64,000 bases of DNA from Candidatus Wildermuthbacteria bacterium (GCA_016203455.1 JACQMR010000009.1:6524-70523), one strand, 5' to 3'; shown: positions 996 to 25,660, counted from the first letter of the stretch. The notes: a model not told the origin generated them from the letters alone. Translations and numbers: made by a program.

Positions 996-1025
996 CATTT
1001 TGGGGTTGTGGCGTACAATATCTTA

Positions 1026-3353
1026 ATGCGCGTTTTTCTTCTCTCTATTTTTGGCATTACAATGTTCATGGGGCTGATTGGCTTTCTGCCCCTGACACTG
1101 CGCGCGGAGCATTTTGCCTGCCCTTCCGACCCTCTCCATCCAGACGCGCCTTTTTGCCCGCCGGAAAACCCCAGTCCTCCATCGGGGTCAAGGGGCGTAA
1201 CATTGCGTACAGACGGATTTTTGATTTTGTCGTGGGAAAACAACCCGTCTGCGCAATGGTATAGATATCAATACAAAAAATCGGATACCCCATGGCCTCT
1301 TTCAGACAAAGATAACGAACCGGGCAATGTAAAAACTCTCACCTCGGCCCCAGAAAGCAACCCCATACCGTTTAATGAGCTTGCCCCCGGACAAAAATAT
1401 GAATGGCGCGTAAAAAGCTGCGCCCCGTTTGACGACGCGGAAAGCGGTATTCACATGGACGAGTTGTGCGGACTCTGGGACGACAGCGATATATGGACAT
1501 TCACATTCGCGCTCAACCCGCCTCCAAAAGAGACACTGACCCCCAATCTTGAAACATCGTCTAAAGACGCGGAATTGCCGATTACCCTTTCTTGGGGCAA
1601 GGTGCCGCTCGCGCAATGGTATCAACTCTACGCGACTCCGTGCCTTAATTGGATCTGGTTTGATCTTGGAGAAGAAGAAGACGAAGACGCAGAAAACGGC
1701 CCTCCGGAAGAATGCTCGTTCTCAATCGTTCCGGATGCGGACGGCAAGCTGGAAGAATCATACAAAGACGACTTTTGCTATTTCACCAAAGACACGACCT
1801 ACATGTGGAGGGTGTCCGCTTGCCTTGTGCCGGGCAACGAAGCTTCTTGCGGTCCGTTTGTTCTCAACGAAGGACTGGAAAACGCAGAGCAACCGGTTGA
1901 GTTTAGAACAGGATTGCCGCCTTCTGATAAACCGTTTCTGCCGAGTCCTGAAATAACCGCTCCGCAATATTCTCCGGAGCAACCTTTGCCTGTAATCTCT
2001 TGGGAATCATCGCTCTCATGGAAAAGCCCCGACGACTGCGCGTATATACACAGAATCTCTTTAACGCGAGAAAGCGACGGGAAAATCTTCCGCATATATA
2101 CAAAAGACCCGCAGGACGAATCTCTCAATATGGGAGATACCATTGGAGCAAGGGGGCGGGATCCAGAAAGCATCTCGTTGGAGGATTTTTGGAGCGATGC
2201 GAATAATATCAATGCCGATTTTACATGGACAGTCGCCGGGTGCTGGGCAAACTCAACAGGCGGAAATGTTGACTGCGAGGGATCGGGAGAAAGCGCGCCT
2301 TCCAGGTTCCGCACCGCCGGAACTCCGCCTTTGTTATCTTTTCCAAAAAAGGGGGCATCCGTAAAAGTCCCGATTGTTCTGCAATGGCAAGGCATAAATG
2401 GCGCCGTATCATACGCGTTTGAGATTTCTCCGGACGGAACGCGCGAACCGGAACCGGGCGGAAATTTTACGAGCGTATCCGCGAGCGGGTCCGCGCTCTC
2501 CGCAACGGTCGCGATTCCTTACGCGGCCGGAAGCATTGAACCTGACAAAGAATACTGGTGGCATGCCAGAGCATGTCTTAACGCGAAAGCGACGGCGTGC
2601 GGGCCCTGGGCAGAACCGATTCATTTTTCTACGCTTCCCATACATACGCCGGCACAGACAACCCCCGCCAATGAAGATGAGGTTTTTGTGCCGGGTTTCA
2701 TATCCTGGCAAGCAGACCCGGGCGCTTCCTACTACCAATACGATCTCGCGTATTTCTGCAAAAATCCGGCTGAAACCCTGACTGCGTGCGACATACCCTC
2801 GTGCGCCCGCCCGGACACGGAATGGAGACCAAAAGTTCTCGCAACCAACACCATTACAAACAGCCCGTTCTTTTCCCAGAATCTCGCGTGCGCCGGGAAA
2901 TACCAATGGAGAGTGCGGTCATGCGCGGATAAAGATTGCGCGCTTGAAAGCGCAAGCGCATATACTCCCTTTATGACATTTCACGGCATAGACCCGCCTC
3001 ACACGGCCGGACTTGTACCCTGCCAGCGGGTTTCAAACAACCCAAACACGCCGTACAACGAAAAAGAGCCGTGCCAGCTCAAGCACGCGGGATTTTTGCT
3101 TCAAAATATTCTGGATTTTGTGCTTTGGAAACTCGCGCTTTTAGTATTTGCCGCGCTTTCGGCATTTCTCGCCGCTTCCACCTTCTTTTCTTTTGGCAGT
3201 GCGGATATTATTTCAAAAGCAAAAGAAATTACGCGATCGTATGCTTACGGATTTATCCTCTTAATGCTCGCGTGGGGAATTGTAAACATTATCATGAGCA
3301 TATTTGGATTCCATGCCGAATTTTTCGGGTACTGGTGGAAACTGCCGTTTTAA
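1026..3353 (+). CDS. Secreted/anchored protein: five Cys-containing FN3-like repeats fused to a C-terminal VirB2/TrbC-like T4SS pilin module
   Basis: The ORF opens at GTG 1008. ATG 1026 lies 6 nt after tacaat (1014-1019). The N-terminus is hydrophobic and signal-like. There are five modules with a W..Y.Y ... Y.WRV.[SA]C pattern. The C-terminus has GLVPC...PCQLKHAGFLLQNILDFVLW followed by two TM helices. Confidence 0.7.
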   Translation: MRVFLLSIFGITMFMGLIGFLPLTLRAEHFACPSDPLHPDAPFCPPENPSPPSGSRGVTLRTDGFLILSWENNPSAQWYRYQYKKSDTPWPLSDKDNEPGNVKTLTSAPESNPIPFNELAPGQKYEWRVKSCAPFDDAESGIHMDELCGLWDDSDIWTFTFALNPPPKETLTPNLETSSKDAELPITLSWGKVPLAQWYQLYATPCLNWIWFDLGEEEDEDAENGPPEECSFSIVPDADGKLEESYKDDFCYFTKDTTYMWRVSACLVPGNEASCGPFVLNEGLENAEQPVEFRTGLPPSDKPFLPSPEITAPQYSPEQPLPVISWESSLSWKSPDDCAYIHRISLTRESDGKIFRIYTKDPQDESLNMGDTIGARGRDPESISLEDFWSDANNINADFTWTVAGCWANSTGGNVDCEGSGESAPSRFRTAGTPPLLSFPKKGASVKVPIVLQWQGINGAVSYAFEISPDGTREPEPGGNFTSVSASGSALSATVAIPYAAGSIEPDKEYWWHARACLNAKATACGPWAEPIHFSTLPIHTPAQTTPANEDEVFVPGFISWQADPGASYYQYDLAYFCKNPAETLTACDIPSCARPDTEWRPKVLATNTITNSPFFSQNLACAGKYQWRVRSCADKDCALESASAYTPFMTFHGIDPPHTAGLVPCQRVSNNPNTPYNEKEPCQLKHAGFLLQNILDFVLWKLALLVFAALSAFLAASTFFSFGSADIISKAKEITRSYAYGFILLMLAWGIVNIIMSIFGFHAEFFGYWWKLPF

Positions 3354-3389
3354 AAAACAGGCGGCGGAATTCCTTTTTTTACGAGCGCG

Positions 3390-6300
3390 ATGTATAATGC
3401 AATAATCTTTATGCAAAAAATCCAACAAGGGGCAATGCGCATTCTCCGGGCTATCATTACGCCCCGATCCGCCGTTTTTCTCGCGCCGTGCCTCGCGCTT
3501 GCGCTGATTTTCGCGTTTACACCTTTTCATATTGCCCAAGCAGGCATTGCGTCTAGCATAGTAGACGCGATACTAGGTACTTTTCTAAACGCCGCGGATA
3601 ATATTTTTGGCTATCTTCTTACTCCAGTAGTATTGATCGTAGAGGCCTTATTCATAGGGATCACAAGTATATTTACAGTGGCTTTAGACATCATCTTAAC
3701 CCTCACAGTCCTCCCCGGCAAAAACCCTACTACTCCGGAATTTGTAACCGATGCGTGGGACGTAACACGCAACATAGCAAACCTCTTTTTTATACTTATT
3801 TTTGCCTTTATAGGTCTTGCCACCATTTTGCGTATTCCCAACTATGAAACACAAAAGCTTCTGCCTTCCCTGCTGATCGTCGCCCTGCTCGTGAACTTTA
3901 GTGGGGTTTTTGTTGGATTCATTGTTGACATCGGGAACATACTCACAACGATCTTCCTGCACGAGACCACCAAAATTGGCGGAGACTGGAATTTCTTCAC
4001 TGCTGCCGGGGGTCACTCCGCGGTACAGCAAATCATACGAATTATTTTTTACCTTCTTGCAACGCTTATCTACTTTGTCGTACTGATTCTTTTTGCCGTA
4101 CGCATACTATTTCTCTGGACTCTCACCATACTTGCGCCTCTTGCTTTTGTGGCCCGTATCCTTCCTCAAACCAAAAAATATTGGGACCAGTGGTTGCAAC
4201 AACTCGTACAGTGGTCTATTGTCGCAGTTCCCGTAACTTTTTTTATGTATTTAGCCAAGAAAGTACTCGAAGCTAGCTCAAATTATGGTTTTTCTCTCAA
4301 CGATGTCACAGAGCCATTGGGCTCTTTTGTAGCGCCGATCACCGCCCTCTTTCTTCTTGCCATAGGAGTCATGGCGAGCATGCAAATGGCCCCAGCAGGA
4401 GCGAAGGGGGCGATTGACTTTGGAAAGAAATGGGGGCTCCGCGGGGGTCTTGCCGCGGGGAGCGGGGCATGGAGAAGATTTGGAACCCCGGTGGAAAACT
4501 TTTCCGCGAAAATGCGGCAACGAGGACAAGATATCGCGGCAAAAGCCGGGCAAGACATGCGCAATGTCAATAAGGACAAAAATATTCTGCAGAGAAGCGG
4601 AGCGGCCGTGAAGTGGGCGGTTGCCGGAAAAACAATAGGCGGCCTGGGCAGAGGCATGGAAATGCTGGGACGCGAAGGGACCATGCGTATGCGCCAGCGG
4701 GATGAGAAAGAACTCAAAGCCGCGCAAGAAGAAGGAAAGAAAAATCCCGGAGACGCGATCAATCAGCTAGAGCAGGAGTTTGCCAAAGGGCCTGCCGCGA
4801 ATATGAACAGAATCACCGGCATTGTTACAGGACTCATAGGAAACGGCAATAAAGACGACATCAATAAGGCGCTCAACGACGGCCGCTTGACGCGCAACCA
4901 AATGCGGCGAACTTACAAACACGCGAAACAATCAGGCACTCCGTATCGCCGCATGATGGAAAAAGGATTCATGGAAGAAAGCATGGGCGACACCGCGGAA
5001 ACCAATCTGCTTGGAGTTGCCGCTGAAGACCGCAAGAGAACTTTGGAAGTCATCGCCGGAGAAGATATATCAAAAGAAATCGTTGATCTCACCAAATTTG
5101 ACCCGTCAAACAACGAAAACCAGGCAAAACTCCTGGACGAACTGATGAAGAACCGCGGCGCGGAACTTTTGCCCGCCATAGCAAAAATGGATCAAAAAGA
5201 CGCCCGCGACCGCATCTTGAAATATATTGCCGGAGACGGAACCGCCGAAGACCCGAAAATTCGCGCGCTTGCCAAGAATTCGCCCGCGGCCTTGAAATGG
5301 CTCACTTCAGGCCCGGGAGCAAGAATCCTGGGGACTGGCATAGATATGTCTCCTGCGCAGGCAGACCAGCTTATACGGGAAGCGCAGACAGAGGGCAAAA
5401 CAACGCAAGAACTTGAAACACGAAGAACACAGATCGCTCAAGCAACCCGAGAGGTGGATGATGATCCATCACTGGCCACTGAAAATCAAAAAAATGCCAA
5501 GAAAAACCAGCTTGCAAAAGAGGGGGAACTAATTGACCAGGAGTTGGAAACGCGCCGCTTCAGGAATATGTCGCCGGAAGCGCTTACGGAATTACAACGC
5601 ATATCGCCACGAGAACGCGAGCGACTGCAAACATTGTCTCTTGAGGATCTTGAGGCGGAACGGTCAATCTACACCAAAAAAGATATCGCGGGGCTTGAAG
5701 CAAAGAAGCGGGATTTGGAAAAGAAGATGGCAGATCAAATACAACAAGCCGCACAGGAAATCACTGGCGGAGAATTTGCGAGAGAACGAGAACGCATACA
5801 GACGACCTTCCAACCGCAAATCGCGAAATTGGATGGCGAACTAGATCGCGCAGAAAGAATAAGACGATCTCCTGCCATAAGGAAAGTGCAGGCGGAGCGG
5901 GCCGCGGCGGCCAAGGCACCAGCTCCCCTGGACCAGCAACCCGCGATTGTTCAGATTGCCGCCCTTGAGAAAGAGAGAGAGCAGTTACAACAAGACGCAA
6001 AGGTGCCGTTCGCCCCGGGCGACGCGGCAAGAAAACGCGTAAAAGAAATTAACGCGGAAATAAGTCTGCTGGAGTCCCAGAAACAAGAACAAACACCCAC
6101 ACAAGAAGATGATGTCTTAAAGTTGCAAAGCGATCTCTACCGAACGGAGGGGGGGAGAAATCCCGCAACCCGTGTTGCGTCGCTTGTGCCGGGGACCAAG
6201 CGGCATAGAGAAGCCCAGGAAATAAAACAGCGAATAGCCCAAGCTACCGAATCGTTTGATATGCGCACATATAGAAAGGCCGCCACCTACACCGATGACC

Positions 6301-7730
6301 GGTTGGCGGAAGAACTTCTGCAATCCAGTCAAACATCAGACACACATTCTGCAAATCTTGAGAACATCCGCGCTCAAATTCAAAACGAACCGCCAAACAG
6401 TCCGTTAAGAACCGCGCTTAGGCAAAAAGAGCAGGAGGTCGCCGATGAACTGCGGGACATTCAAGAAAACCAAAGGGAACTTTTGGGCGCTCGGCTCTTT
6501 AGAACCCAGCAAAAACTGGATGAGGCGCAAGGAATCGGCAAAACAATTGAAGAAGAAATAAGAGAACTCCAGAAAGAAAAAACAACTCTCGCGCCGAACC
6601 AAAGAAACGAGGCACAAGCAATTGACCGCGATATTCAAATCAAACGCACAGAACTAAAACAGCGCTCTACTGAAGCAGAAAGCATTGTCAAACAACAAAA
6701 AGAGGATCTTGAAATAATTGATACTCTTAAGATAGCCATGGACCCCTCGGCACGCGCCACGGCAGAAACTGCCGCAAAAACGGCGCGGGCGCGAGAGGCC
6801 GCGGCAAAAGCGCGAACCAATCTCAACCGTCTCATTACCTCTAACGCCCACCCGAACATTGTTAAAAAAGCCGAAGCGGAGGCCAAAAAGGCGCGCGTAA
6901 CGCAAGAAGAGCAGGAGCGGCTCTTGCTTGTGGTTGCCGCAAAAGAAGAACTGGAACAAAAGATTGCTCAAGAAAAAAGAGACGAAAACCCCGTTATGCT
7001 TGAGGATTATGACAACCAGCTAAAAGCGATAGAACAGGGAGAAGCTCTGATGCAAAGAGATAAAAGGTATCTAAATCGCGCGGCGGCGGCACGGCTTGAA
7101 AAAGACCAGCAAAACTATATCCGAACTGTTCTTATGCCGCATAAAACAAAAGAACTGCAAGAACGCATGGACAACGAAATAAAAAGACAGGCGGAACTGG
7201 CAAAGGTTCAGGAACGCAAAAAAGCGAAGAATAAAAATGCTCCGCCCGATCAGACGCCGCCCTCCGGCCCGCCCCCCTCAACCCCGCCGCCCAGACCTTC
7301 TTCCGGCCCCTCTTCTTCAACTCCCCCGCCGCCCCAAAGACCGCGCGCTCCCAGAGGCGGAGGCGCAAGCCAGGCGCCTCCGCCTTCTAGCGGCGGCGCC
7401 CGGTTTGCCGGCGGCGCGCAAGGAATGCAGGATTTTGGCACAAGACCTTCCGCGCCCACTCCACCTAGTACTCCCCAAAACTCTAGGTTTGCAGGAACAT
7501 CAACACCGGGAGGAATGCAAGATTCAGAGAACGAACCGCAAATCGGAGATTTGGCTCATTGGGTCGGTAACGGGGTACAACGCACACATCAACCGATCAA
7601 AATAACGCGAATTGAAATGGGGCCGGATGGTAAAAAATACGCTTTTATTGAGCATCAAGATCCTAGAGACGCAACATCTAGCGCGATCCCACTTAATGAG
7701 TTGATAAAAGAAGCGAATCCGCGCGCATAA
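3390..7730 (+). CDS. Giant polytopic membrane protein, VirB6/TrbL-like N-terminus plus long charged coiled coil, Pro-rich linker and small C-terminal domain
   Basis: 1446-aa ORF. About 7 hydrophobic helices lie in the first ~330 aa. These are followed by ~800 aa rich in E/K/R/Q/A, then PPSGPPPSTPPPRPSSGPSSSTPPPPQRP. The start is uncertain: tataat (3393-3398) overlaps the first ATG, and in-frame ATGs occur at 3411 and 3435. Confidence 0.6.
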   Translation: MYNAIIFMQKIQQGAMRILRAIITPRSAVFLAPCLALALIFAFTPFHIAQAGIASSIVDAILGTFLNAADNIFGYLLTPVVLIVEALFIGITSIFTVALDIILTLTVLPGKNPTTPEFVTDAWDVTRNIANLFFILIFAFIGLATILRIPNYETQKLLPSLLIVALLVNFSGVFVGFIVDIGNILTTIFLHETTKIGGDWNFFTAAGGHSAVQQIIRIIFYLLATLIYFVVLILFAVRILFLWTLTILAPLAFVARILPQTKKYWDQWLQQLVQWSIVAVPVTFFMYLAKKVLEASSNYGFSLNDVTEPLGSFVAPITALFLLAIGVMASMQMAPAGAKGAIDFGKKWGLRGGLAAGSGAWRRFGTPVENFSAKMRQRGQDIAAKAGQDMRNVNKDKNILQRSGAAVKWAVAGKTIGGLGRGMEMLGREGTMRMRQRDEKELKAAQEEGKKNPGDAINQLEQEFAKGPAANMNRITGIVTGLIGNGNKDDINKALNDGRLTRNQMRRTYKHAKQSGTPYRRMMEKGFMEESMGDTAETNLLGVAAEDRKRTLEVIAGEDISKEIVDLTKFDPSNNENQAKLLDELMKNRGAELLPAIAKMDQKDARDRILKYIAGDGTAEDPKIRALAKNSPAALKWLTSGPGARILGTGIDMSPAQADQLIREAQTEGKTTQELETRRTQIAQATREVDDDPSLATENQKNAKKNQLAKEGELIDQELETRRFRNMSPEALTELQRISPRERERLQTLSLEDLEAERSIYTKKDIAGLEAKKRDLEKKMADQIQQAAQEITGGEFARERERIQTTFQPQIAKLDGELDRAERIRRSPAIRKVQAERAAAAKAPAPLDQQPAIVQIAALEKEREQLQQDAKVPFAPGDAARKRVKEINAEISLLESQKQEQTPTQEDDVLKLQSDLYRTEGGRNPATRVASLVPGTKRHREAQEIKQRIAQATESFDMRTYRKAATYTDDRLAEELLQSSQTSDTHSANLENIRAQIQNEPPNSPLRTALRQKEQEVADELRDIQENQRELLGARLFRTQQKLDEAQGIGKTIEEEIRELQKEKTTLAPNQRNEAQAIDRDIQIKRTELKQRSTEAESIVKQQKEDLEIIDTLKIAMDPSARATAETAAKTARAREAAAKARTNLNRLITSNAHPNIVKKAEAEAKKARVTQEEQERLLLVVAAKEELEQKIAQEKRDENPVMLEDYDNQLKAIEQGEALMQRDKRYLNRAAAARLEKDQQNYIRTVLMPHKTKELQERMDNEIKRQAELAKVQERKKAKNKNAPPDQTPPSGPPPSTPPPRPSSGPSSSTPPPPQRPRAPRGGGASQAPPPSSGGARFAGGAQGMQDFGTRPSAPTPPSTPQNSRFAGTSTPGGMQDSENEPQIGDLAHWVGNGVQRTHQPIKITRIEMGPDGKKYAFIEHQDPRDATSSAIPLNELIKEANPRA

Positions 7731-7734
7731 AAAA

Positions 7735-7780
7735 GAGGGGAGAAGCAGTTTGGATTAAATCCTTCCTGCTTCTCCCCTTT
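7735..7780. terminator. Bidirectional hairpin terminator between convergent genes
   Basis: ggggagaagcag (7737-7748) pairs with ctgcttctcccc (7766-7777). It is flanked by an A-run upstream and ttt downstream. Confidence 0.7.
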
Positions 7781-7791
7781 AAAACCGCCGC

Positions 7792-8265
7792 CTACGCCGT
7801 GGAATCATCCGGTGGCTCGGCGGCAATGCCGCCGCCTTCTTTCTCGTCAGCCGATTCCTCGGCCAATAGAATTTCCTGCCACCTGGCGTGCGCCCGCGCA
7901 CGCCGATCGGGCAGGACTCGCTCAACGCGTCCTGCCGCGGTTTGAGCGGCCGAAAGGGTCCCAAGATCCCGTTCGGCGGCATCTAACTCGGCGGCGGCGG
8001 CCCGGGCGCGCACAAGGCGCGCCGTTACACTCGTCGCCAGGCTGGCCCTCTCGGCGGCCGAGGGAAGCCCATCCCCCCCGCCAAGAACTGCTTGTCCAAC
8101 ACCCAGTTGGCGACGGAGATCCTCCAGAGGACTATCTCCCGCAGTGTCCTCTGGCGGCGCATTCTCGTTTTTGTTGCGCCGCCGCACCACCACCGCCACC
8201 GCCACAAAAAACCCTCCGGTCGCCACCATGGCGACCGCAATCAGAAGCCATCCCCACCACTCCAT
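7792..8265 (-). CDS. Single-pass membrane protein, Ala/Arg/Gly-rich, in a locally G+C-rich segment
   Basis: The ORF is 7792-8325. The internal ATG at 8265 is preceded by gaggagg (complement of 8271-8277). The TM segment is WWGWLLIAVAMVATGGFFVAVAVVV followed by RRRNK. Confidence 0.55.
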   Translation of the reverse strand: MEWWGWLLIAVAMVATGGFFVAVAVVVRRRNKNENAPPEDTAGDSPLEDLRRQLGVGQAVLGGGDGLPSAAERASLATSVTARLVRARAAAAELDAAERDLGTLSAAQTAAGRVERVLPDRRARAHARWQEILLAEESADEKEGGGIAAEPPDDSTA

Positions 8266-8460
8266 GGAGTCCTCCTCTGGGACCAAAACTTCGCAAGACC
8301 CTATCTTACGAGCTGGCAATATCATACATCATAATACATAAAATGTCAAGGATTTTGAGTATTCCTGTTTAGCGCGCGCCGCCTTTCCTGCGGACGCATA
8401 CGCGCGTCTTTGCATACAAAACACCGTGGATTGTGATATACTCAATTTATACATTTATCT

Positions 8461-8907
8461 ATGGCAATCACATACACGCAGGTGCAAAAAGACGCAATAC
8501 TAACAAAACTCCCGCAGGAGCTCAAAGACGCGCTGTTTTCCCTGGAAACAGCGGACGCCATCCTGGAGATATGCGAAAACGCCGGCATCATGGATGAACG
8601 GGCGAATAAAATATCTGAACTGGCAGGGGATGTGTTATTGGGATTGTTGCTCCCGCAAGATTTTTCCGGCGCGCTGGAAAAAAACCTCGGACTTTCCGCG
8701 CAAGACGCGCAGGCAATAGCCAGGATCATGAACCGAACCGTGTTCTACCCGGTAAAACCTGCTTTAGAGCAAATCCACCGCATGGAAATTGAGGTGTCCG
8801 CCAAAATTGTAACGCCAGAACCCCGGAAATCCGGCGAAGAATCCAAAGAACAAGGGCCGCCGCAAAAACCAAGCGGAGAAGATAGATACAGAGAACCGCT
8901 GGAATAA
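8461..8907 (+). CDS. Hypothetical protein
   Basis: 148-aa ORF in the same direction as the T4SS-like genes. TGnTATACT-like tgatatact lies upstream. No motif recognised. Confidence 0.5.
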   Translation: MAITYTQVQKDAILTKLPQELKDALFSLETADAILEICENAGIMDERANKISELAGDVLLGLLLPQDFSGALEKNLGLSAQDAQAIARIMNRTVFYPVKPALEQIHRMEIEVSAKIVTPEPRKSGEESKEQGPPQKPSGEDRYREPLE

Positions 8908-8910
8908 TGC

Positions 8911-8941
8911 GTTTGTATTGCGTAGTTTGTATTTTGTATCT
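8911..8941. repeat. Left arm of TACAAA-word inverted repeat bracketing the four-helix-bundle gene
   Basis: gtttgtattgcgtagtttgtattttgtatct is an imperfect reverse complement of the arm at 9304-9332. The shared core is ttgtattttgta / tacaaaatacaa. Confidence 0.7.
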
Positions 8942-8944
8942 GGT

Positions 8945-9340
8945 ATGACTGAAAACAAAATCAGATCTTTTACAGACCTCAACGCGTGGAAAGAAGGGCA
9001 TAAGCTTGTACTGATGATTTACAGAACAACCGAACACTTCCCCGGCAGAGAAATGTTCGCCTTAATAAATCAGATGAGGCGATGTGTGATTTCCATAACC
9101 TCAAATATAGCCGAGGGATTCAGTAGGGGCACAAACAACGACAAGTGCCAATTCTACACAACAGCCCAGGGATCGTTGACAGAACTGCAAAATCAACTGT
9201 TAATTGCCCGCGATATCGGATACATCCGACAGGAAGAATTTCAAACGCTTGCCAACCAAACCATTACAACCAACAAACTCCTGAACGGCCTAAAAAGAAT
9301 ACGAAATACAAGCTACAAAATACAAGATACACAGCAATGA
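8945..9340 (+). CDS. Four-helix-bundle protein (23S rRNA intervening-sequence protein / Avd-like family)
   Basis: MTENKIRSFTDLNAWKEGHKLVLMIY...ITSNIAEGFSRG...FYTTAQGSLTELQNQL matches the family signature known from memory. The stop overlaps the next start (ATGA at 9337-9340). Confidence 0.8.
   Translation: MTENKIRSFTDLNAWKEGHKLVLMIYRTTEHFPGREMFALINQMRRCVISITSNIAEGFSRGTNNDKCQFYTTAQGSLTELQNQLLIARDIGYIRQEEFQTLANQTITTNKLLNGLKRIRNTSYKIQDTQQ
9304..9332. repeat. Right arm of TACAAA-word inverted repeat (inside the 3' end of the four-helix-bundle CDS)
   Basis: aaatacaagctacaaaatacaagatacac encodes ...NTSYKIQDTQQ. Confidence 0.7.
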
Positions 9341-9747
9341 GATTCCAGGTTCCCCAATTTATTGAACACGAGGCAAAGGTCATAGGCCCTCTTACTTTCA
9401 AACAGTTCGTGTACCTGGGGGTTCCGGGGGCGATCGGATTCTTTTTATATTTCCTTACTCCTTTCCCCGTATTCATCTCAATCACCATACCTCTTGGCGC
9501 TTTCGGTTTTCTCCTTGGATTTATTAAAATGGGGGGCAGATCTCTCCCCGGACTCCTCTCCAGTTTTGTAAAATTCATCTTTGAGCCCAAAAGATACATC
9601 TGGAGAAAGGGGAAAGCTCCCGCGCAGACACCGCAAGCCAGGTATGTTTCCGCGGCGCCGGAAGAATCATACGGAAAAGCAAAAATACAGCTGGTGCAGA
9701 AAAGCAGGGTGCGAGATTTGGCGATACGGGTGGATACGGCCAAATAG
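9337..9747 (+). CDS. PrgI/VirB3-like small T4SS membrane protein
   Basis: MRFQVPQFIEHEAKVIGPLTFKQFVYL followed by two TM helices. This is the typical PrgI-family N-terminus. The ATG at 9337 is in frame within ORF 9145-9747. Confidence 0.65.
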   Translation: MRFQVPQFIEHEAKVIGPLTFKQFVYLGVPGAIGFFLYFLTPFPVFISITIPLGAFGFLLGFIKMGGRSLPGLLSSFVKFIFEPKRYIWRKGKAPAQTPQARYVSAAPEESYGKAKIQLVQKSRVRDLAIRVDTAK

Positions 9748-9825
9748 GGGAATAATTTTACGCAAGCCGCCAGTTGTTCGTGCTTTGGCATTTATTATCC
9801 GTTATATATTATATACATGTAACCC

Positions 9826-10470
9826 ATGCCCCAGGGATCCACGCAAAACTTTCTTGAAGTAGAGGAAATCAGAGAGGGCATACTGGTGCTTAAAACCCGG
9901 CAGGTGCGCGGGGTGCTTATGGTTTCTTCCCAAAACTTCGCCTTAAAATCCGCAGAGGAACAAGAGGCGATTATCTTTCAGTTTCAGAATTTTCTTAACT
10001 CCCTGGATTTCTCGCTCCAAATATCCATACAGTCAAGACGGCTCAATATCACGGGGTACATTGACTATTTAAAAAACCTTGAACAAGACCAGCCAAACGA
10101 ACTCTTGAAAAACCAGACGGCTGATTACCGGACATTCGTGGAACAGCTTATCTCGGGCGGATCCATTATGGCAAAAAACTTTTTTGTGGTGGTCCCGTTT
10201 TCCCCGCTGGAAGTGGTGGGCGGGTATCAAAAACAATCCCCCGCGGATCAGCAGGGCAAGGTGGGCAAACTTTCAGACGCCCAGTTCCAAAGAATGAAGA
10301 ACCAGCTGTGGCAAAGAATGGAGTATGTTGCCCTGGGCCTGCGCAGAGCCGGTCTCCAGGTTGCTCCCTTGAGCACGGAAGAACTCATTGAGCTTTTGTG
10401 GACCTGGCACCACCCCCAGGAAGCGGAGGTTGGATATTACCCTGAAATACCCCCGGAAATGGTACGATAA
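9826..10470 (+). CDS. Hypothetical protein resembling a VirB4/TraC-type N-terminal domain
   Basis: 214-aa ORF immediately upstream of the VirB4-like ATPase. Pattern FLEVEEIREGILVLKTRQVRGVLMVSSQNFALKSAEEQEAI. Confidence 0.5.
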   Translation: MPQGSTQNFLEVEEIREGILVLKTRQVRGVLMVSSQNFALKSAEEQEAIIFQFQNFLNSLDFSLQISIQSRRLNITGYIDYLKNLEQDQPNELLKNQTADYRTFVEQLISGGSIMAKNFFVVVPFSPLEVVGGYQKQSPADQQGKVGKLSDAQFQRMKNQLWQRMEYVALGLRRAGLQVAPLSTEELIELLWTWHHPQEAEVGYYPEIPPEMVR

Positions 10471-10474
10471 AGAC

Positions 10475-12277
10475 ATGAAGATTCCCTTTATAAAAACAAG
10501 GCGAAAGGCCGTTCCCGGACGCGTCTTTGAAGCGGAGGTGACAACAGCCGCCGATATTATAGCGCCATCTTCCGTGCAGGTGAATTCGGAAAATCTGGAC
10601 ATGTCCGGACGCCTTGCCAAAACCTTTTTTGTTTTCTCATACCCCAGGTATCTCTCGGCCGCGTGGCTTTCCTCCACCATCAACCTGGATGTGCCAATGG
10701 ACATCTCATTATTCATACACCCCATAGACACCACTTTTATCTTAAAACAACTCCGCAGAAGGGTAACGGAAGTGCAATCGGAGATCATGGACAAAGAAGA
10801 CCGGGGACTGGTGAGAGACCCGGAACTGGAAACCGCATTCCAGGATTTGGAAGATCTGCGGGACCGTCTGCAAACCGCCCAAGAAAAAATGTTCCGCCTG
10901 GGGGTGTACATCACCGTATATGGAGAAACAACCGAAGAACTGCGCCAGATTGAAACCACCCTCCGTTCTATTTTTGAATCGCGGCTTTTATACATAAAAC
11001 CCGCTCTGTACCAGCAAAAAGAGGGATTTAACTCCTGCCTCCCGTACGGCAGAGACCTGCTGGGGGTTCACACATCGCTAAATACGGACCCTTTGTCTTC
11101 CACCTTTCCTTTTGTGTCGTTTGACCTGTCTTCCAACGCAGGCATTTTATACGGCATAAACCGGCATAATAATTCCCTTATTCTTTTTGACAGGTTCTCT
11201 TTGGAAAACGCCAACGAGGTCATCTTCGCGAAAAGCGGCTCCGGAAAGTCCTACGCGGTAAAACTGGAGGTATTAAGGTCGCTTATGACCGGCGTAGATG
11301 TTGTGATTCTAGATCCGGAAAACGAATACCGCGCGCTCGCGCAAGCCATTGGCGGCAGTTTTTACGACATCTCTTTGGGATCTGAAAACCATGTAAACCC
11401 TTTTGACCTTCCGGCCCCCAGAGAAGACGAAAAAGCGGAGGATGTATTAAGATCCAACATTATCAATCTTGTGGGCCTCATGCGCATCATGCTGGGAGGC
11501 CTCACCCCGGAAGAAGACGCGATTATGGACAGAGCGATTACTGAAACCTATGCCGCCAAAGACATAACCATAGAGTCAGACCCGGCGGCATGGAAAACAA
11601 ACATCCCGCTTATGGAGGATCTGGAGCAAGTTCTGGAAGGCATGGAAGGGGCCGAGTCCCTGGTGCGCCGCCTCCATAAATTCACCAAGGGAACATATGA
11701 AAATTTCTTTAACCGCCCAACCAACATTGAGCTGGGCGCGAGTCTTATTTCATTTGGCATCCGCGACATGGAAGAAGGCCTGCGGCCCATGGCTATGTAC
11801 ATCATCATGCGGTATATATGGAATATCGTAAGATCTGAATTGAAGCGCAGAATACTGGTGCTGGACGAAGCATGGTGGATCATGCAGTCAGAAGAAGGAG
11901 CGTCTTTTTTATACGGCATTGCCAAGCGCGCGAGAAAATACTATCTGGGGGTTACCACTATTACCCAGGATGTGGGGGACTTTATGAAGTCCTCGTACGG
12001 GAGGCCCATCATCACAAACTCTTCCATACAAATTTTAATGAAACAAAGTCCGGCAACCATAGATCTTCTGCAAAAAGCGTTTAATCTCACAAGCGAAGAA
12101 AAAAATTTACTGCTGGAAACCGATGTGGGTGAGGGAATATTTTTCGCGGGACAAAAACATGTGGCGATTAAAATCGTGGCCTCTCCGGCGGAACACCAAA
12201 TCATCACCACGGCCCCCGAAGAACTCTTAAGAAGACGAGAACAAAAAGACAATCTAACAAACGCGGCGAATCCTTAA
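10475..12277 (+). CDS. VirB4/TrsE/TraC-like T4SS ATPase
   Basis: Walker A FAKSGSGKSY, Walker B ILVLDEAW, N-terminal FFVFSYPRYLSAAWL motif. ATG 10475 lies in frame within ORF 10388-12277. Confidence 0.85.
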   Translation: MKIPFIKTRRKAVPGRVFEAEVTTAADIIAPSSVQVNSENLDMSGRLAKTFFVFSYPRYLSAAWLSSTINLDVPMDISLFIHPIDTTFILKQLRRRVTEVQSEIMDKEDRGLVRDPELETAFQDLEDLRDRLQTAQEKMFRLGVYITVYGETTEELRQIETTLRSIFESRLLYIKPALYQQKEGFNSCLPYGRDLLGVHTSLNTDPLSSTFPFVSFDLSSNAGILYGINRHNNSLILFDRFSLENANEVIFAKSGSGKSYAVKLEVLRSLMTGVDVVILDPENEYRALAQAIGGSFYDISLGSENHVNPFDLPAPREDEKAEDVLRSNIINLVGLMRIMLGGLTPEEDAIMDRAITETYAAKDITIESDPAAWKTNIPLMEDLEQVLEGMEGAESLVRRLHKFTKGTYENFFNRPTNIELGASLISFGIRDMEEGLRPMAMYIIMRYIWNIVRSELKRRILVLDEAWWIMQSEEGASFLYGIAKRARKYYLGVTTITQDVGDFMKSSYGRPIITNSSIQILMKQSPATIDLLQKAFNLTSEEKNLLLETDVGEGIFFAGQKHVAIKIVASPAEHQIITTAPEELLRRREQKDNLTNAANP

Positions 12278-12292
12278 TCATTCCTCTTTTCT

Positions 12293-12790
12293 ATGCCACT
12301 GCCCGCCATTGCCGCGGCCGCCGGGAAAGCGGCCCAAGGCGCGAAAAAACTCATACCGCGAAAGAAACCCGGGGTGTTCAGCCCGCCCGGCATTATCATG
12401 CTCTTTCTCGCTGTGATCATAGAGGTGGTAAATATGATATTAACTTTTCTGGATCTCGCGCTTGGCATAGGCACGGTTGTCGCCGTGCCCGTAAACGCGG
12501 CCGCCATGCTTATTATAGGCGGATGGATTTGGTTCACCTCGGGCCAGCTCCCGCTAAAAAAAGCGCTCCTCCCGTTTGGCCTCAATGCCCTCCCCGTCGC
12601 AAGATTTTTCCCGTTCTGGCTGTGGTCTGTATGGTCTAATTTAGACAAGGGTTCCCCCGCGCAGGGAGAGGAAAACCCGGAGCCGAAAGAATCCGGCGAA
12701 GAAACCGCGGAACAGCCCGCGGAGCCAGCCCAAACCAGCAATACTCCCAATTCGCAAAGCAAAACACAAACAACAAAAGCCGGCGCATAA
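12293..12790 (+). CDS. Polytopic membrane protein of the T4SS-like locus
   Basis: 165-aa ORF with several hydrophobic helices and an acidic/polar tail. Confidence 0.55.
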   Translation: MPLPAIAAAAGKAAQGAKKLIPRKKPGVFSPPGIIMLFLAVIIEVVNMILTFLDLALGIGTVVAVPVNAAAMLIIGGWIWFTSGQLPLKKALLPFGLNALPVARFFPFWLWSVWSNLDKGSPAQGEENPEPKESGEETAEQPAEPAQTSNTPNSQSKTQTTKAGA

Positions 12791-12840
12791 ATACAGCGCG
12801 CGCGTCGCTGTGCCTCGCGTTTTCTCCTGTTGGTCATTGG

Positions 12841-12880
12841 AAATTGATTAGAAATTAGGCATTAAAAATTAGGAATTAGT
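12841..12880. repeat. ATTAGAAATT-word repeat spacer
   Basis: aaattgattagaaattaggcattaaaaattaggaattagt. The same words (tgattag, gaattag, attagaaatta) recur on the other strand at 21862-21880, 22110-22135 and 22871-22905. Confidence 0.7.
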
Positions 12881-12931
12881 TCTGTGAGCGTTCTCCTATC
12901 CAAACAACGCGCCATGCGATATAATAATACT

Positions 12932-13306
12932 ATGAAAACATGGGTGTCCGTCTTATTGCTTGTTTTTGTACTTTTACCAATAACGGCAAGCGCGCTTGAA
13001 CTTGAACTTAATCTTGATTACCCTAAATTTGGCGGGGTGGATATTAGTCAAGAATCCAGCCAAAACCTCCCGGGTTTGGTGTCTTGGGTTTATGTCACCA
13101 TTGTAGGCATATCGGGACTTGCCGCGTTTGCCATGATCATTTGGGGCGGGGTTCAATGGATGACATCCGCGGGAAACCCATCAAAAACAGGGGACGCGAA
13201 AGATAAAATACAAAAAGCCCTGCTCGGGCTTCTCATTGTTCTTTCCTCTTATGTCGTGCTTTCTTTTATTAACCCGGATCTTACGACTCTGCGGGATATC
13301 TTTTAA
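12932..13306 (+). CDS. VirB2/TrbC-like T4SS pilin
   Basis: Signal-like MKTWVSVLLLVFVLLPITASA. Two TM helices flank the loop SAGNPSKTGDAKDKIQKA. tataat (12920-12925) lies 6 nt upstream of the ATG. Confidence 0.7.
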   Translation: MKTWVSVLLLVFVLLPITASALELELNLDYPKFGGVDISQESSQNLPGLVSWVYVTIVGISGLAAFAMIIWGGVQWMTSAGNPSKTGDAKDKIQKALLGLLIVLSSYVVLSFINPDLTTLRDIF

Positions 13307-13745
13307 GACGCACAACCACCCTGCGCTCCGGCCCCTCGCCAATGCTTTCTGTTTCAACATCGGTCCTGGACGCAAGTTCCATGTGGACCACTCTGCGATC
13401 GCCTGAATTCATAGGGGAAAGCTCTTTTGGGGCGCGGAACAGCGCCACCTCGTCTGCCGCGGATCTCGCAATTTCGCGGACCCGATCTTCCCTGTCTTTT
13501 TTGTACCCGTTCACATCCACGCTCACAAGCGCCAGTCCGATCAGATGCTTTCGCGCGAGAGCGCGAATAATATGCTGAATGTCGTCTAGCGACCGCCCTT
13601 GTTCACCAATGTAAAGATGGGGATCTAAAGAGGACGCATGTACCCAAAAAACGCGGCCGTCTTCACTAAACGAACACACCGGCGCCTGAACGCCAAGTAA
13701 AAAAAATATCCGCTGGATGATGGATTCCAATAGAGAGGTGTCCAT
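13281..13745 (-). CDS. jag: Jag/KhpB-like KH plus R3H RNA-binding protein
   Basis: R3H-like LSPMNSGDRRVVHMEL, in the conserved position downstream of yidC. Confidence 0.75.
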   Translation of the reverse strand: MDTSLLESIIQRIFFLLGVQAPVCSFSEDGRVFWVHASSLDPHLYIGEQGRSLDDIQHIIRALARKHLIGLALVSVDVNGYKKDREDRVREIARSAADEVALFRAPKELSPMNSGDRRVVHMELASRTDVETESIGEGPERRVVVRLKRYPAES

Positions 13746-13748
13746 AGG

Positions 13749-14444
13749 TTACGGAGTTTGGCGTTTTCTTGTTACCATCCATTGCTGGCCTATGGAAAAC
13801 AGGGTTGTAGTCACCCAATACAGCCCAATGGCGGACGGAAGCTGGGAAACAAACATGAGAGTAATCGCGGGAAACAAATACAACATATATTTTTGCGCAG
13901 TGGGCGCGGGCCCTGTTTCTTTTTTTGCCCCCGCCATTTGTTTGCCTTGGAAGAACTGGAAAACGGCGGCGGCAAGCGCGAGCGCGAAAGACCGCCCGCC
14001 CAAATCCAAAAACCCCAAAAACACGGGGTCAATATGCGCCGGGTTCTGCACGAAACCATACAGACGGGACAACTGCTCGGCATCCAAACCGTTCCAAAAC
14101 ACCTGGTACAGCGTTATTAAAAAAGGAAGCTGAATCAACAAAGGCAGAATACCGGCAAACGGATTCACTTTTTCTTGCGCATACAGCGCCAAAAGTTCCC
14201 GGGCCTGCCTGTCTTTATCGCCCTTAAACCGCTCCTGAATTTCTTTTGCTTTTGGCTGGATGTCCGCGATTTTGCGCTGGGCCACAATCGCTTTCGCGCT
14301 TAGGGGGTATAAGGCAAATCTAAACAAAAGAGTGAGAAGAATAATGGCAAGCCCAAAATCCTTCCCGGGGATAAGGTTGTACAATATGACGAGAATATTA
14401 AAAAAGGGGTCAAAAAGAAATGTGTGATAAAGCGATGAAAACAT
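13749..14444 (-). CDS. yidC: Membrane protein insertase YidC/Oxa1 family
   Basis: 231-aa polytopic ORF with GLAIILLTLLFRFALYPLS and NPFAGILPLLIQLPFLITLY, within rnpA-yidC-jag synteny. Confidence 0.9.
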   Translation of the reverse strand: MFSSLYHTFLFDPFFNILVILYNLIPGKDFGLAIILLTLLFRFALYPLSAKAIVAQRKIADIQPKAKEIQERFKGDKDRQARELLALYAQEKVNPFAGILPLLIQLPFLITLYQVFWNGLDAEQLSRLYGFVQNPAHIDPVFLGFLDLGGRSFALALAAAVFQFFQGKQMAGAKKETGPAPTAQKYMLYLFPAITLMFVSQLPSAIGLYWVTTTLFSIGQQWMVTRKRQTP

Positions 14445-14459
14445 GTGAATATGTCCTCT

Positions 14460-14792
14460 TTAATGAATCTTGAAAAAAAGCCGCCGCACAATCTCTTGGG
14501 CATCCGCCGCGCCCTTGAGGGAAATACCGCGCAAGACAATTATCACGACATCCCGCGCGCCGATATGCTGAATGTTAGCCCGCAGGCCTTCTTGCAAAAG
14601 ACGGCGGATCCTGTTTCTCTGAACCGCGCTTTTATGAACCGCCTTTGACACAACCACGGCAAACCTCGGCTCTTTTCCTTTGGACATTGCCGCTTTCATT
14701 ACCACCCTTCCTTCTTTTATGCTTACGGGACCGGAAAAAACTCCGCGAATATCCGAAGACCGAACAAGCCGATGCGCCCGGGGTAACGCCAT
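14460..14792 (-). CDS. rnpA: Ribonuclease P protein component
   Basis: 110-aa basic ORF with KAVHKSAVQRNRIRRLL, immediately downstream of rpmH. Confidence 0.8.
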   Translation of the reverse strand: MALPRAHRLVRSSDIRGVFSGPVSIKEGRVVMKAAMSKGKEPRFAVVVSKAVHKSAVQRNRIRRLLQEGLRANIQHIGARDVVIIVLRGISLKGAADAQEIVRRLFFKIH

Positions 14793-14795
14793 ATT

Positions 14796-14930
14796 TTAGA
14801 GCGCGATCCGCGCTCTCCCTTTTCTGCGCCGCCTGGCAATGGTTCTTCTCCCCCCAACGGTTTTCATCCGGCCCAAAAATCCGTGGGCGCGGGCGCGTTT
14901 TTTCTTTTTTGGTTTATATGTAACGCTCAT
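14796..14930 (-). CDS. rpmH: 50S ribosomal protein L34
   Basis: Hand translation of the complement gives [44 protein letters not shown] (44 aa). It is below the ORF-track size cut-off. Confidence 0.9.
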
Positions 14931-15042
14931 GAGAAAAGTATAAACGAAAACCGCCAAAATGTCCACAAAGGCAACAGTACTTTAAAAAACTAAAAACCGC
15001 GCGCTAAAAACCTGTTTCTGCCCAGAAGCGGATCTCCCCTGT

Positions 15043-15062
15043 TTATCCACAGGTTATCCACA
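15043..15062 (+). promoter_or_regulatory. Two consensus DnaA boxes (oriC candidate) upstream of dnaA
   Basis: ttatccaca at 15043-15051 and 15054-15062. A degenerate atgtccaca at 14960-14968. The rpmH | dnaA arrangement is classic. Confidence 0.8.
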
Positions 15063-15120
15063 CATTCCAACCGCAATGATATGTTTTGCTACCCTTGCTT
15101 GCCTGGGATATACTATTTCT

Positions 15121-16479
15121 ATGAACAAAGAAGAACTCTGGCAGGCAACCCTTGCCCAACTGCAATTCAAAACCTCTCCGGCAAATTTTGCCACATGGCT
15201 GAAAAACACTTATATCTTAGACAACAAAGACGGCTTGCTCACGGTCTCCGTGCCGAATAACTTCTCAAAGGAATGGCTGGAAAATAAATACAACAAAACA
15301 ATCTTTCATATTATTAAAGAACTCAACGACGAAGTAAAAGAAATCAAATACATGGTGGAAAAAACCGCTGGCAAGGCAAAAGAGGCGGCGCCACGGCACG
15401 CGCAACCCTCGCCGCCCGAACGCCAGCTGGGATTCCCCGAATTAGACGCGGACCAAACAACCAACCTAAACCAAAAATACACATTTGAGAATTTTATCGT
15501 TGGCCCGTTTAACGAACTGGCGCATGCCGCGGCCCTGGCAACCGTAAAAAATCCTGGCGGTCCGGGAAATCCGCTGTTTGTGTATGGAGGCGTAGGTCTT
15601 GGGAAAACCCACCTTCTTCAGGCAACGGGAAACCAGATCATACAAAACACTCCGGGAAAAAAGGTGAAGTACATAACTTCCGAATATTTTACATCTTCGG
15701 TGGTTTCCGCGATACGCAACAGAACCGTGGAAACGCTCCGGGAAAAATTCAGGGAACTTGACGCGCTTATTATTGACGACATACAATTTCTCGCGGGTAA
15801 AGAAAAAACCCAAGAAGAGCTGTTCCACACCTTCAATACCCTTTACCAAGCCGGAAAGCAGGTTATCTTTTCTTCTGACCGCCACCCAAAAGCAATCCCC
15901 GCGCTGGAGGAACGGTTGAGATCTCGGTTTGAGGGAGGCATGGTCGCCGATGTTTCCATGCCCGACTATGAAACCCGCCTGGCTATTCTGCGAACAAAAC
16001 TCCAAGAAAAAGGTGTGTTTATGGAAAACGATGTGCTGGATTATATTGCATCTCACATACAAAGAAACATTAGGGAATTGGAAGGAGCCCTAAACAGATT
16101 GATCACATCGTCTCAAGTTGTGGGAAAAATGCCCGCATTGCAGGAAGCTAAAACCCTCTTGCGAAGTATTATTTCCAACCCGAATAAGGCGGCAAACCCA
16201 AGAAAAATCATACAAGTTGTGGCTGAATTTTATGATTTGAAAGAAAAAGAAATTATTGCCGACTCGCGCAAAAAAGAGGTGGTAAGGCCCCGGCAGATCG
16301 CCATGTATCTTTTGCGGGAAGAACTAAAAGGATCATATCCTTTTATTGGCAAAAAATTCGGGGGGAAAGACCACACAACGGCAATATACGCATGTGAAAA
16401 AATCCACAAAGAACTCCAGGAATCAGAGATGCTGGTTGATGAAATATCGTTGATAAAACAGAGAATCTACAGCGGATAA
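15121..16479 (+). CDS. dnaA: Chromosomal replication initiator DnaA
   Basis: Walker A GGVGLGKTHL and C-terminal DNA-binding GGKDHTTAIYA. tatact (15109-15114) lies 6 nt before ATG 15121. The ORF opens at 15076. Confidence 0.95.
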   Translation: MNKEELWQATLAQLQFKTSPANFATWLKNTYILDNKDGLLTVSVPNNFSKEWLENKYNKTIFHIIKELNDEVKEIKYMVEKTAGKAKEAAPRHAQPSPPERQLGFPELDADQTTNLNQKYTFENFIVGPFNELAHAAALATVKNPGGPGNPLFVYGGVGLGKTHLLQATGNQIIQNTPGKKVKYITSEYFTSSVVSAIRNRTVETLREKFRELDALIIDDIQFLAGKEKTQEELFHTFNTLYQAGKQVIFSSDRHPKAIPALEERLRSRFEGGMVADVSMPDYETRLAILRTKLQEKGVFMENDVLDYIASHIQRNIRELEGALNRLITSSQVVGKMPALQEAKTLLRSIISNPNKAANPRKIIQVVAEFYDLKEKEIIADSRKKEVVRPRQIAMYLLREELKGSYPFIGKKFGGKDHTTAIYACEKIHKELQESEMLVDEISLIKQRIYSG

Positions 16480-16643
16480 CCTGGGGAAAACTCGCCGCTA
16501 AACTCCCCCCATATTTTTTCCCCGCGCATCCCCAAGAGATTTCCCCCGCGCTCTCCCCGCACACATAGACGGCCGATCCGCGTTTTGCACACCCGTAAGT
16601 ATAATAAATAATAGATTCTATATAAAAACATTAGAATATTATT

Positions 16644-25655: not shown

Positions 25656-25660
25656 GGCAA

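Follow-up and report, generated by a model that had tools for sequence, protein, structure and literature searches.

The locus described here raises the question of what the genes of a type IV secretion system (T4SS) are doing beside the replication origin of a bacterial chromosome when no genes for conjugation accompany them. It lies at positions 1026-13306 of a 64,000-nucleotide stretch of DNA from a Candidatus Wildermuthbacteria bacterium (GCA_016203455.1 JACQMR010000009.1:6524-70523), and we refer to this whole stretch as the window. Our analysis indicates that the locus is very probably a vertically inherited, chromosomal T4SS of the Patescibacteria clade that derives from monoderm (MPF_FATA) conjugation machinery. 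The host genome belongs to the Paceibacteria (Parcubacteria, near Ca. Wildermuthbacteria). Chromosomal T4SSs of this type are carried by nearly all ultra-small Patescibacteria, and a system of this kind, located beside the origin and without conjugation genes, was already published in 2023-2025 (PMC10633639 and PMC12102498). Within the Paceibacteria arrangement, the locus is unexceptional.

Synteny and inheritance of the locus

A scan of one genome per species yielded at least 510 loci with relatives of VirB4, and the best 80 of these were used for comparison. VirB4 is 67-79% identical in these 80 loci, which come nearly all from Patescibacteria-type metagenome-assembled genomes (Wildermuthbacteria, Nealsonbacteria, Paceibacterota and Parcubacteria), although the titles of many of these records are generic or read "Saccharibacteria". 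The gene order that recurs across them is ksgA-(pilin fusion)-(pilin)-virB6-p148-prgI-trsD-virB4-(membrane protein, pilins)-jag-yidC-rnpA-dnaA-dnaN-PBP-tyrS, where PBP is a penicillin-binding protein gene. Of the 53 loci whose flanking sequence is long enough, 51 have dnaA no more than 10 kb downstream, and its median distance from virB4 is 2.2 kb. An earlier note on this DNA, made from the sequence alone, had suggested a synteny comparison, and the same gene order and dnaA neighborhood indeed recur across the 80 related genomes. Because the gene order recurs in this way and dnaA is nearby in 51 of 53 loci, we conclude that this is a core locus maintained by vertical inheritance and not a fragment of an integrative and conjugative element (ICE).

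Within the window, the block is bordered on one side by ksgA (123-995, + strand) and, as the earlier note had read it, on the other by jag-yidC-rnpA-rpmH-oriC-dnaA, and these genes and the origin were confirmed by profile searches, DnaA boxes and GC skew. A position beside dnaA, dnaN, rnpA, rpmH and ksgA is the one reported for the T4SSs of Paceibacteria and Microgenomatia, where it has been read as an origin-proximal dosage effect (PMC12102498).

Profile searches gave no family match to a relaxase, a coupling protein (VirD4; T4CP) or VirB8-11 on any sizeable open reading frame (ORF) of the window, which agrees with the earlier note's description of the surroundings of the block. No relaxase or coupling protein was found in the 5.4 kb upstream of the window or in the 3.7 kb beyond its end, and an iterated search from VirB4 against all ORFs found no VirB4-like paralogue that could be a T4CP within 10 kb on either side in the 80 loci and the window. 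Likewise, there are no mobile-element genes at the borders of the block, and the absence of an integrase or tRNA boundary, also claimed earlier, was confirmed: the only tRNA of the window is at 37.7 kb and its only Xer-like tyrosine recombinase at 38471-39388 (-), placing them 24-25 kb away (25 kb for the recombinase).

These results bear on the possibility of a partial or degenerated ICE whose location near oriC would be accidental. The closest models from outside the Patescibacteria are indeed conjugative (conju_CD1110, the VirB4 and pilin of a Mycoplasma ICE, and TrsD of pGO1), and two genes in the block, encoding an intervening-sequence (IVS) protein and a GC-rich orphan, look foreign. However, the same synteny with housekeeping borders is seen in 80 species-level genomes, and the block has no integrase, tRNA or repeat boundary. 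Its GC fraction of 0.49-0.53 is like that of its flanks and matches the rest of the window, which is about 50% GC throughout, and no related locus showed a block-free ksgA-jag junction with att-like border repeats. VirB4 is at least as conserved as DnaA, with median identities across the related loci of 71% for VirB4, 61.5% for DnaA and 60% for TrsD, although the VirB4 figure is inflated by the choice of loci by VirB4 similarity. In addition, the closest relative of a Patescibacteria VirB4 protein belongs to its own class in 99.3% of cases (PMC12102498). The features of a conjugative MPF_FATA T4SS or ICE, namely a relaxase, a T4CP, integrase or att boundaries and a patchy distribution, were not found here, where the searches covered the 64 kb window, its short flanks and the 80 related loci. 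The central proposal of the earlier note, a chromosomally fixed, T4SS-derived machine without relaxase or coupling protein in an episymbiont, is supported by the synteny, by the border and GC checks, and by published work (PMC10633639, PMC12102498).

The VirB4 ATPase and its detached N-terminal domain

The VirB4 ATPase (600 amino acids; 10475-12277, +) matches NF045971 (conju_CD1110) with 371 bits against a cut-off of 325, over profile positions 185-734 of 752, and it also matches PF19044 and PF12846. Its translation spans the middle and C-terminal P-loop domains and contains the Walker A motif SGSGKS and the Walker B motif ILVLDEAW, so that the assignment made earlier on the basis of these motifs stands. 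The closest solved structure is a monoderm one, the VirB4 domain of Thermoanaerobacter (4AG5, E 7e-45), with R388 TrwK matching at E 4e-7. Thus, NF045971, 4AG5 and the nearest-relative results all give this VirB4 a monoderm (MPF_FATA)/Patescibacteria affinity. The earlier note had called the machine minimal, which mirrors monoderm (MPF_FATA) ancestry rather than a recent reduction by loss from a VirB1-11 machine.

Directly ahead of virB4 is a gene (9826-10470, +) that ends 4 nt upstream of it and encodes a protein of 214 amino acids. Its profile matches are to the TrsD model NF041427 and to the N-terminal portions of two VirB4 models, NF045975 (E 1.8e-8) and NF045971. On the CD1110 VirB4 model the protein covers positions 2-104, and the VirB4 ORF takes positions 185-734. 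Among 33 orthologues, 33 match NF045975, 31 match NF045971 and 21 match NF041427. A simple hydropathy scan predicted no transmembrane segment, a search of the PDB with the family profile returned only a chance tetratricopeptide repeat match, and the C-terminus is an invariant G-Y-Y-P-E-I-P-P-E. As judged from these profile matches, the product is a TrsD-like, detached N-terminal domain of VirB4. We rejected the reading of the TrsD/VirB4 split as a frameshifted virB4, since trsD is a separate ORF abutting virB4 in 77 of the 80 loci. The earlier note had left this protein unassigned and perhaps in the membrane; it is instead predicted to be soluble and TrsD-like. The T4SS assignments in its parts list hold, but it had overlooked both TrsD and the prior publication of the system.

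PrgI and an extended VirB6

The proposed PrgI/VirB3-like protein (9337-9747, +) matches PF12666 above the gathering cut-off (E 2.3e-8), has a hydrophobic hairpin at residues 29-65 and is present in 71 of the 80 loci. A PDB search found no match for it. By analogy with known systems, this hairpin protein would be the membrane anchor for VirB4.

The VirB6/TrbL-like protein is a polytopic membrane protein of 1,446 amino acids (3390-7730, +) that has no Pfam match by itself. At the level of the family, however, its identity as the VirB6-like giant of the earlier note is supported. Seven of 39 orthologous N-domains match PF04610 (TrbL), and database homologues carry precomputed PF19590 or PF04610 annotations. 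When the family profile was compared with the PDB, TrwI/VirB6 was the sole sequence match. An AlphaFold model of residues 1-420 has a pLDDT of 80.8, and the top nine Foldseek hits for this N-domain model are TrwI/VirB6 chains, with probabilities of 0.84-1.00 (1.00 for the top five) and target-normalised TM scores of 0.39-0.54. The profile checks of the T4SS families that the earlier note had suggested thus placed the pilin, PrgI and VirB4 above their cut-offs, whereas VirB6 is supported at family level and not by a direct Pfam match.

The N-terminal channel or platform domain of VirB6 (residues ~1-360) is conserved in 48 loci. What follows is lineage-specific, consisting of a hydrophilic, charged tail of ~1,000 amino acids, a proline-rich stretch and a small C-terminal domain, and past residue 800 the tail matches nothing in the related loci. 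Orthologous ORFs are 578-1263 amino acids long (excluding a 30-amino-acid split call in locus L010), making the protein of the window the longest. It is an "extended VirB6" in the sense of PMC12857230.

Pilin modules and an Ig-repeat protein

The earlier note had also claimed that two proteins of the block carry a VirB2-like module, and both cases held up, though by different routes. The small pilin (124 amino acids; 12932-13306, +) matches PF18895 (T4SS_pilin) with 37.5 bits (E 2.5e-9) against a cut-off of 26.6 and also matches the ICE pilin model NF045849 (E 3.4e-7); it has a signal peptide followed by two hydrophobic helices. The second protein is encoded at 1026-3353 (+), and its public gene call is 775 amino acids long (781 amino acids from a GTG at 1008). 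It contains about five immunoglobulin (Ig)/fn3-like repeats with a YxWRVxxC motif (PF25788, E 1.2e-7) and hydrophobic segments at residues 1-32, which form an N-terminal signal or anchor, 695-731 and 744-770. Its C-terminal two-helix module alone matches T4SS_pilin below threshold (E 0.011). Direct BLAST of the C-terminus of the 781-amino-acid protein against the small pilin gave no significant match (E 0.70), and a family profile was needed to identify this second module. An iterated profile built with jackhmmer over the ORFs of the 80 related loci finds it at residues 677-762 (781-amino-acid numbering) with E 4e-17.

Most related loci have pilin-module ORFs, and these frequently form arrays or are extended far beyond the module at the C-terminus. 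One form is an Ig-repeat protein of ~700-860 amino acids with the module at its C-terminus, encoded upstream of virB6; orthologues of this architecture are found in 17 of the 80 loci, and a C-terminal module was counted in the window and 16 other loci. A second form, found in many loci downstream of virB4, has an N-terminal module followed by extensions of 150-1,300 amino acids. The block in the window has one fusion and just one free pilin, with no pilin array. We infer that the Ig-repeat pilin fusion is an adhesin or tip. In a more tentative reading, which we consider doubtful, the fusion of pilin modules to large ectodomains would make the pilus itself a modular adhesin display.

Other genes inside the block

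Three proteins had been left unassigned by the earlier note, which regarded two of them as membrane proteins. This is the case for the product of 12293-12790 but not for those of 8461-8907 and 9826-10470, neither of which has a predicted transmembrane segment and the latter of which is the TrsD-like protein.

The gene at 8461-8907 (+) encodes a soluble protein of 148 amino acids, p148, and is located directly upstream of prgI in 60 of the 80 loci. In the protein, a helical bundle (residues 7-115) is followed by a disordered linker of variable sequence, and the C-terminus carries the motif D-x-Y-R-E-P-x-E, which is invariant. Its AlphaFold model has a pLDDT of 73, with the helical bundle confidently predicted, and a hydropathy scan found no transmembrane segment. 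The family comprises 6,352 clusters at 50% identity (E ≤ 1e-3). No match to p148 was found in Pfam (43 members scanned), in NCBIfam, in a PDB profile search or by Foldseek with the AlphaFold model; the PDB search returned only chance-level matches to integration host factor and endonucleases. The protein is probably a cytoplasmic accessory subunit of the T4SS, as far as its sequence and genomic position can tell. A bolder proposal, which we put forward tentatively and consider doubtful, is that p148 is an overlooked, near-universal subunit of Paceibacteria-type T4SSs whose DxYREPxE motif docks onto TrsD/VirB4 and recruits substrate in place of a coupling protein. Neither the p148 family nor the pilin-fused Ig-repeat proteins are described in the survey passages of PMC12102498, and the occurrence of this family upstream of prgI-trsD-virB4 may be a new detail. 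The two forms of the pilin-module proteins and the head-on strand placement of the block may be new as well, as refinements of the known picture.

The membrane protein of 165 amino acids encoded directly after virB4 (12293-12790, +) has two or three hydrophobic helices and an acidic, disordered tail and gave no Pfam or NCBIfam match. It occurs in 8 of the 80 loci, and a word-indexed protein search returned eight clusters, one of them the window's own; this is a narrow, lineage-specific family.

The earlier note had described the block as co-directional. While the T4SS genes are all on the + strand, the block is interrupted by an orphan gene on the - strand and also by the IVS-protein gene, which is located between p148 and prgI. 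The IVS protein (8918-9340, +) is a 23S-rRNA-IVS four-helix-bundle (Avd-like) protein that matches PF05635 (E 1.6e-34) and TIGR02436, and the stop codon of its gene overlaps the start of prgI (ATGA). It is not a T4SS component. An IVS-type gene with 35-71% identity occupies the slot between p148 and prgI in 3 of the 80 loci (L010 at ~8034, L033 at ~486 and L074 at ~8507), and loci L005 and L006 carry small pilin-like ORFs in the same place. Given that this slot is filled in three other lineages and holds pilin-like ORFs in two more loci, this site of the T4SS operon appears to be a hot spot for insertions.

The orphan gene (7792-8325, -) is GC-rich and encodes a single-pass membrane protein, its likely start being an ATG at 8265 preceded by AGGAGG. 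It is convergent with virB6, with a hairpin at ~7735-7775 between the two, and it is preceded by the region's strongest sigma-70-like promoter match (8349 to 8321). The gene is called in a public assembly. No homologue was found in the 80 related loci, and it is not a conserved part of the T4SS. Scans with Rfam and for tandem repeats found nothing within the T4SS block.

Proposed function and alternatives

The mechanism that we propose is modeled on the structure of the R388 T4SS, on the TrsC-TrsD-TrsE core of pGO1/pIP501 and on Saccharibacteria genetics. TrsD and VirB4 would together form a cytoplasmic ATPase docked at the membrane through PrgI, while VirB6 would provide the membrane platform and channel. 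The ATPase would pull pilin modules out of the membrane and polymerise them on VirB6, and the resulting pilus or stalk would cross the monoderm wall, with the Ig-repeat pilin fusion acting as its adhesin or tip. Such a machine would mediate contact with a host cell and the transfer of proteins or host-derived macromolecules without relaxase-led conjugation. By analogy with the Saccharibacteria, it is probably required for epibiotic growth. The earlier note had considered DNA uptake or host-cell contact; our checks and the literature support a role in host contact or macromolecule transfer, not in conjugation.

Several points weigh against this account of the locus. The clade assignment of VirB4 rests on profile scores and nearest relatives. 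No substrate, effector or DNA-processing gene could be identified in the T4SS locus, and its function is one that we infer throughout; nor is there a VirB8-like or VirB1-like gene within the block. A LysM-M23 peptidase gene outside the window is tied to the T4SS by position alone. The essentiality data come from the Saccharimonadia and not from the Paceibacteria (PMC10633639). Finally, the absence of a relaxase and a T4CP holds for the 64 kb window and its short flanks.

Of the other possible functions, one is that the machine serves only as an adhesive pilus or surface display, with VirB4 and VirB6 inserting and polymerising pilin-anchored Ig-repeat adhesins and no substrate passing through. 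This would fit the fusion of pilin modules to large extracellular domains, C- or N-terminally, across the loci, as well as the lack of a coupling protein in the search for VirB4 paralogues. It would also fit the grouping of T4SS pilins with adhesion-type proteins that are highly expressed in Patescibacteria enrichment cultures; in methanogen-enrichment cultures that contain Patescibacteria, these pilins belong to the genes of unknown function with high expression (PMC10936435). However, VirB6 and VirB4 are very strongly conserved while pilins and adhesin domains vary, although conservation alone is not decisive, and type IV pili already give Patescibacteria a means of adhesion, a PilB-type ATPase being encoded in the window. 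We consider a purely adhesive role unlikely, although the sequence data fit it and the main explanation alike.

We regard as improbable a role as an importer of DNA or nucleic acids, comparable to ComB of Helicobacter pylori or archaeal Ced, that would feed nucleotides or genes to a nucleotide-auxotrophic cell. Like ComB, the block has VirB2/3/4/6-type parts without a relaxase, a nearby T4CP or VirB11; VirB4 weakly matches the models of CedB (E 2e-9) and CedD (E 6.5e-7); Patescibacteria lack nucleotide synthesis; and in the class ABY1 the T4SS adjoins comF, recG and radA (PMC12102498). The CedB match, however, reaches only 36.5 bits against a cut-off of 700, compared with 371 bits for the model of conjugative monoderm VirB4, and the window searches found neither a CedA-like gene nor the VirB7-VirB10 or ComB7-10 genes that accompany VirB2/3/4/6 in ComB. 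The block has no specific link to genes for competence or recombination; ruvA, ruvB, recO and polA are scattered housekeeping genes. Moreover, Southlakia needs comEC for natural transformation but can do without transformation itself, while its T4SS is essential in a way that does not involve ComEC.

The ICE fragment discussed above is extremely improbable and, given the synteny, the absence of an integrase or tRNA border and the absence of a relaxase and T4CP from the window and its short flanks, can be rejected as excluded for practical purposes.

Our preferred reading thus remains that of a resident, T4SS-derived machine for host contact and macromolecule transfer, and such T4SSs are probably central to the host-cell lifestyle of about a quarter of bacterial diversity. 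The T4SS of Patescibacteria is reportedly the first to be shown essential to the bacterium that carries it. The window provides one more well-resolved Paceibacteria example and adds nothing further on the T4SS substrate. As by-products, it gives a cleaner list of parts for the Paceibacteria, with a split VirB4, a fold-supported VirB6 and pilin modules fused to ectodomains, and it brings to light p148 as a widespread, unannotated partner protein that is an obvious target for structural and interaction studies.

The replication origin and other features of the window

Downstream of the block, jag, yidC, rnpA and rpmH occupy 13281-14930 (-), with rpmH itself at 14796-14930, and are followed by the rpmH-dnaA intergenic region (14932-15075), the putative oriC. 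This region contains two perfect, tandem DnaA boxes (15043-15051 and 15054-15062) just 5' of dnaA. The cumulative GC-skew minimum is at 14-16 kb, and the skew is negative to the left of 16 kb. Since the tandem boxes precede dnaA and the skew minimum falls at the same place, the assignment of the origin is sound. Across the whole window, 14 DnaA boxes were found where 10 are expected, which is not above chance, and only the two perfect tandem ones before dnaA are meaningful. Next come dnaA and dnaN (15076-17774, +), a class A PBP gene (17821-19785, -) and tyrS (19935-21104, +). With respect to replication, the T4SS block is encoded by the lagging strand, and the fork coming from oriC meets it head-on. 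The orientation is kept in every related locus: all 70 Jag genes are on the - strand and all 60 dnaA genes on the + strand.

The 5.4 kb upstream of the window contain an NYN-domain gene, the gene for polynucleotide phosphorylase, a gene for an unassigned protein of 339 amino acids, a DksA/TraR zinc-finger gene and the LysM-M23 gene. This last gene (LysM-LysM-Peptidase_M23; 4254-5279, -, of the upstream segment L081) adjoins ksgA in divergent orientation, ~190 nt upstream of window position 1, and is kept beside ksgA in 25 related loci. Its product is a candidate cell-wall hydrolase in place of VirB1. The 3.7 kb beyond the window's end (L084) hold housekeeping genes only.

The remaining ORFs of the window are likewise housekeeping genes, a few of which merit mention. 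A T2SSE ATPase of the PilB/GspE type (24366-25802, -; 389 bits) is encoded between ruvB and tsaE, 11 kb from the T4SS, and is presumably a type IV pilus motor. A tRNA-Arg(CCG), a small methyltransferase gene and the Xer-like recombinase gene at 37713-39388 could be a small integrated element, or the recombinase simply xerC/D; they are unrelated to the T4SS. A transfer-messenger RNA gene (Rfam RF00023, 90 bits) adjoins smpB at 50968-51765 (-), which is an ordinary arrangement. Finally, a class I aminoacyl-tRNA synthetase of the isoleucyl type (1,189 amino acids; 53636-57205, +) carries a PF00300 His_Phos_1 domain at residues 512-682 (E 3.7e-34) that splits its catalytic tRNA-synt_1 domain, an unusual insertion.

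Comparison with known systems

The H. pylori ComB system resembles the locus in being chromosomal, T4SS-derived, without relaxase or VirD4 and put to a non-conjugative use. It differs in having VirB7-10 homologues and belonging to the diderm MPF_T lineage, and neither these genes nor this affinity was found in the window. The R388 Trw system (7O3V, 8RT9 and 8RTD) is likewise diderm and has VirB5, VirB7-11, VirD4 and a relaxase, none of which was found in the window. Nevertheless, its TrwI superposes on the predicted model of the VirB6 N-domain (Foldseek probability 1.0, TM 0.50-0.54), although VirB6 identity is only 17-18%, and TrwK is homologous to the ATPase domain of the window's VirB4.

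Closer relatives are found among monoderm systems. The pGO1/pIP501 subclass (TrsC-TrsD-TrsE) shares the order VirB3-like protein, TrsD and VirB4, and TrsD is otherwise confined to the pGO1 subclass (PMC12102498). The window's VirB4 passes the NCBIfam cut-off of the family of CD1110-type ICE VirB4 proteins, and its nearest solved structure is the monoderm 4AG5. In contrast to Gram-positive conjugative T4SSs, the block has no relaxase, T4CP, VirB1-like hydrolase or VirB8-like protein, whereas it does have VirB2-type pilins, which are absent from the Gram-positive systems. Unlike pGO1/pIP501 or the CD1110 ICE, the locus is chromosomal and syntenic and is not on a mobile element.

The T4SS of Southlakia epibionticum ML1 (SEML1_0006-0019) is of the same monoderm type, with VirB2-like pilins and without recognisable coupling or relaxase proteins in its cluster (PMC10633639). 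Using transposon sequencing, Wang et al. (2023, Cell) showed that epibiotic growth requires this T4SS and its pilins, which are essential for it, and they proposed that it delivers protein or DNA or has another role at the epibiont-host interface (PMC10633639). Southlakia differs in belonging to the class Saccharimonadia and in having a six-gene pilin array and peptidase and lysozyme genes directly downstream of virB4. The window, by comparison, has one free pilin and one fusion, and its candidate hydrolase (LysM-M23) lies beyond ksgA and outside the window.

The closest match is the Paceibacteria arrangement itself. In a survey of 3,035 Patescibacteria genomes, Quinonero-Coronel et al. (2025, Microb Genom) found VirB4 in 2,417 genomes and reported that, of 2,474 VirB4 proteins, 2,425 make up one monophyletic clade within MPF_FATA (PMC12102498). 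According to this survey, genes for TrsD, PrgI/VirB3, VirB6 and VirB2-like pilins are clustered around virB4, hardly any relaxases occur, and a T4CP gene is seldom found next to the cluster, with VirD4-like genes found elsewhere in most of the genomes. A 2025 FEMS review treats these systems as a new branch within the T4SS superfamily (PMC12857230). The window has the same VirB4 affinity, the same TrsD, PrgI, VirB6 and pilin components, no relaxase, no adjacent T4CP and the same neighbors. Compared with the survey, nothing essential differs, and what is specific to the window is the longest VirB6 tail among the compared loci, the IVS and orphan genes, and a single free pilin.

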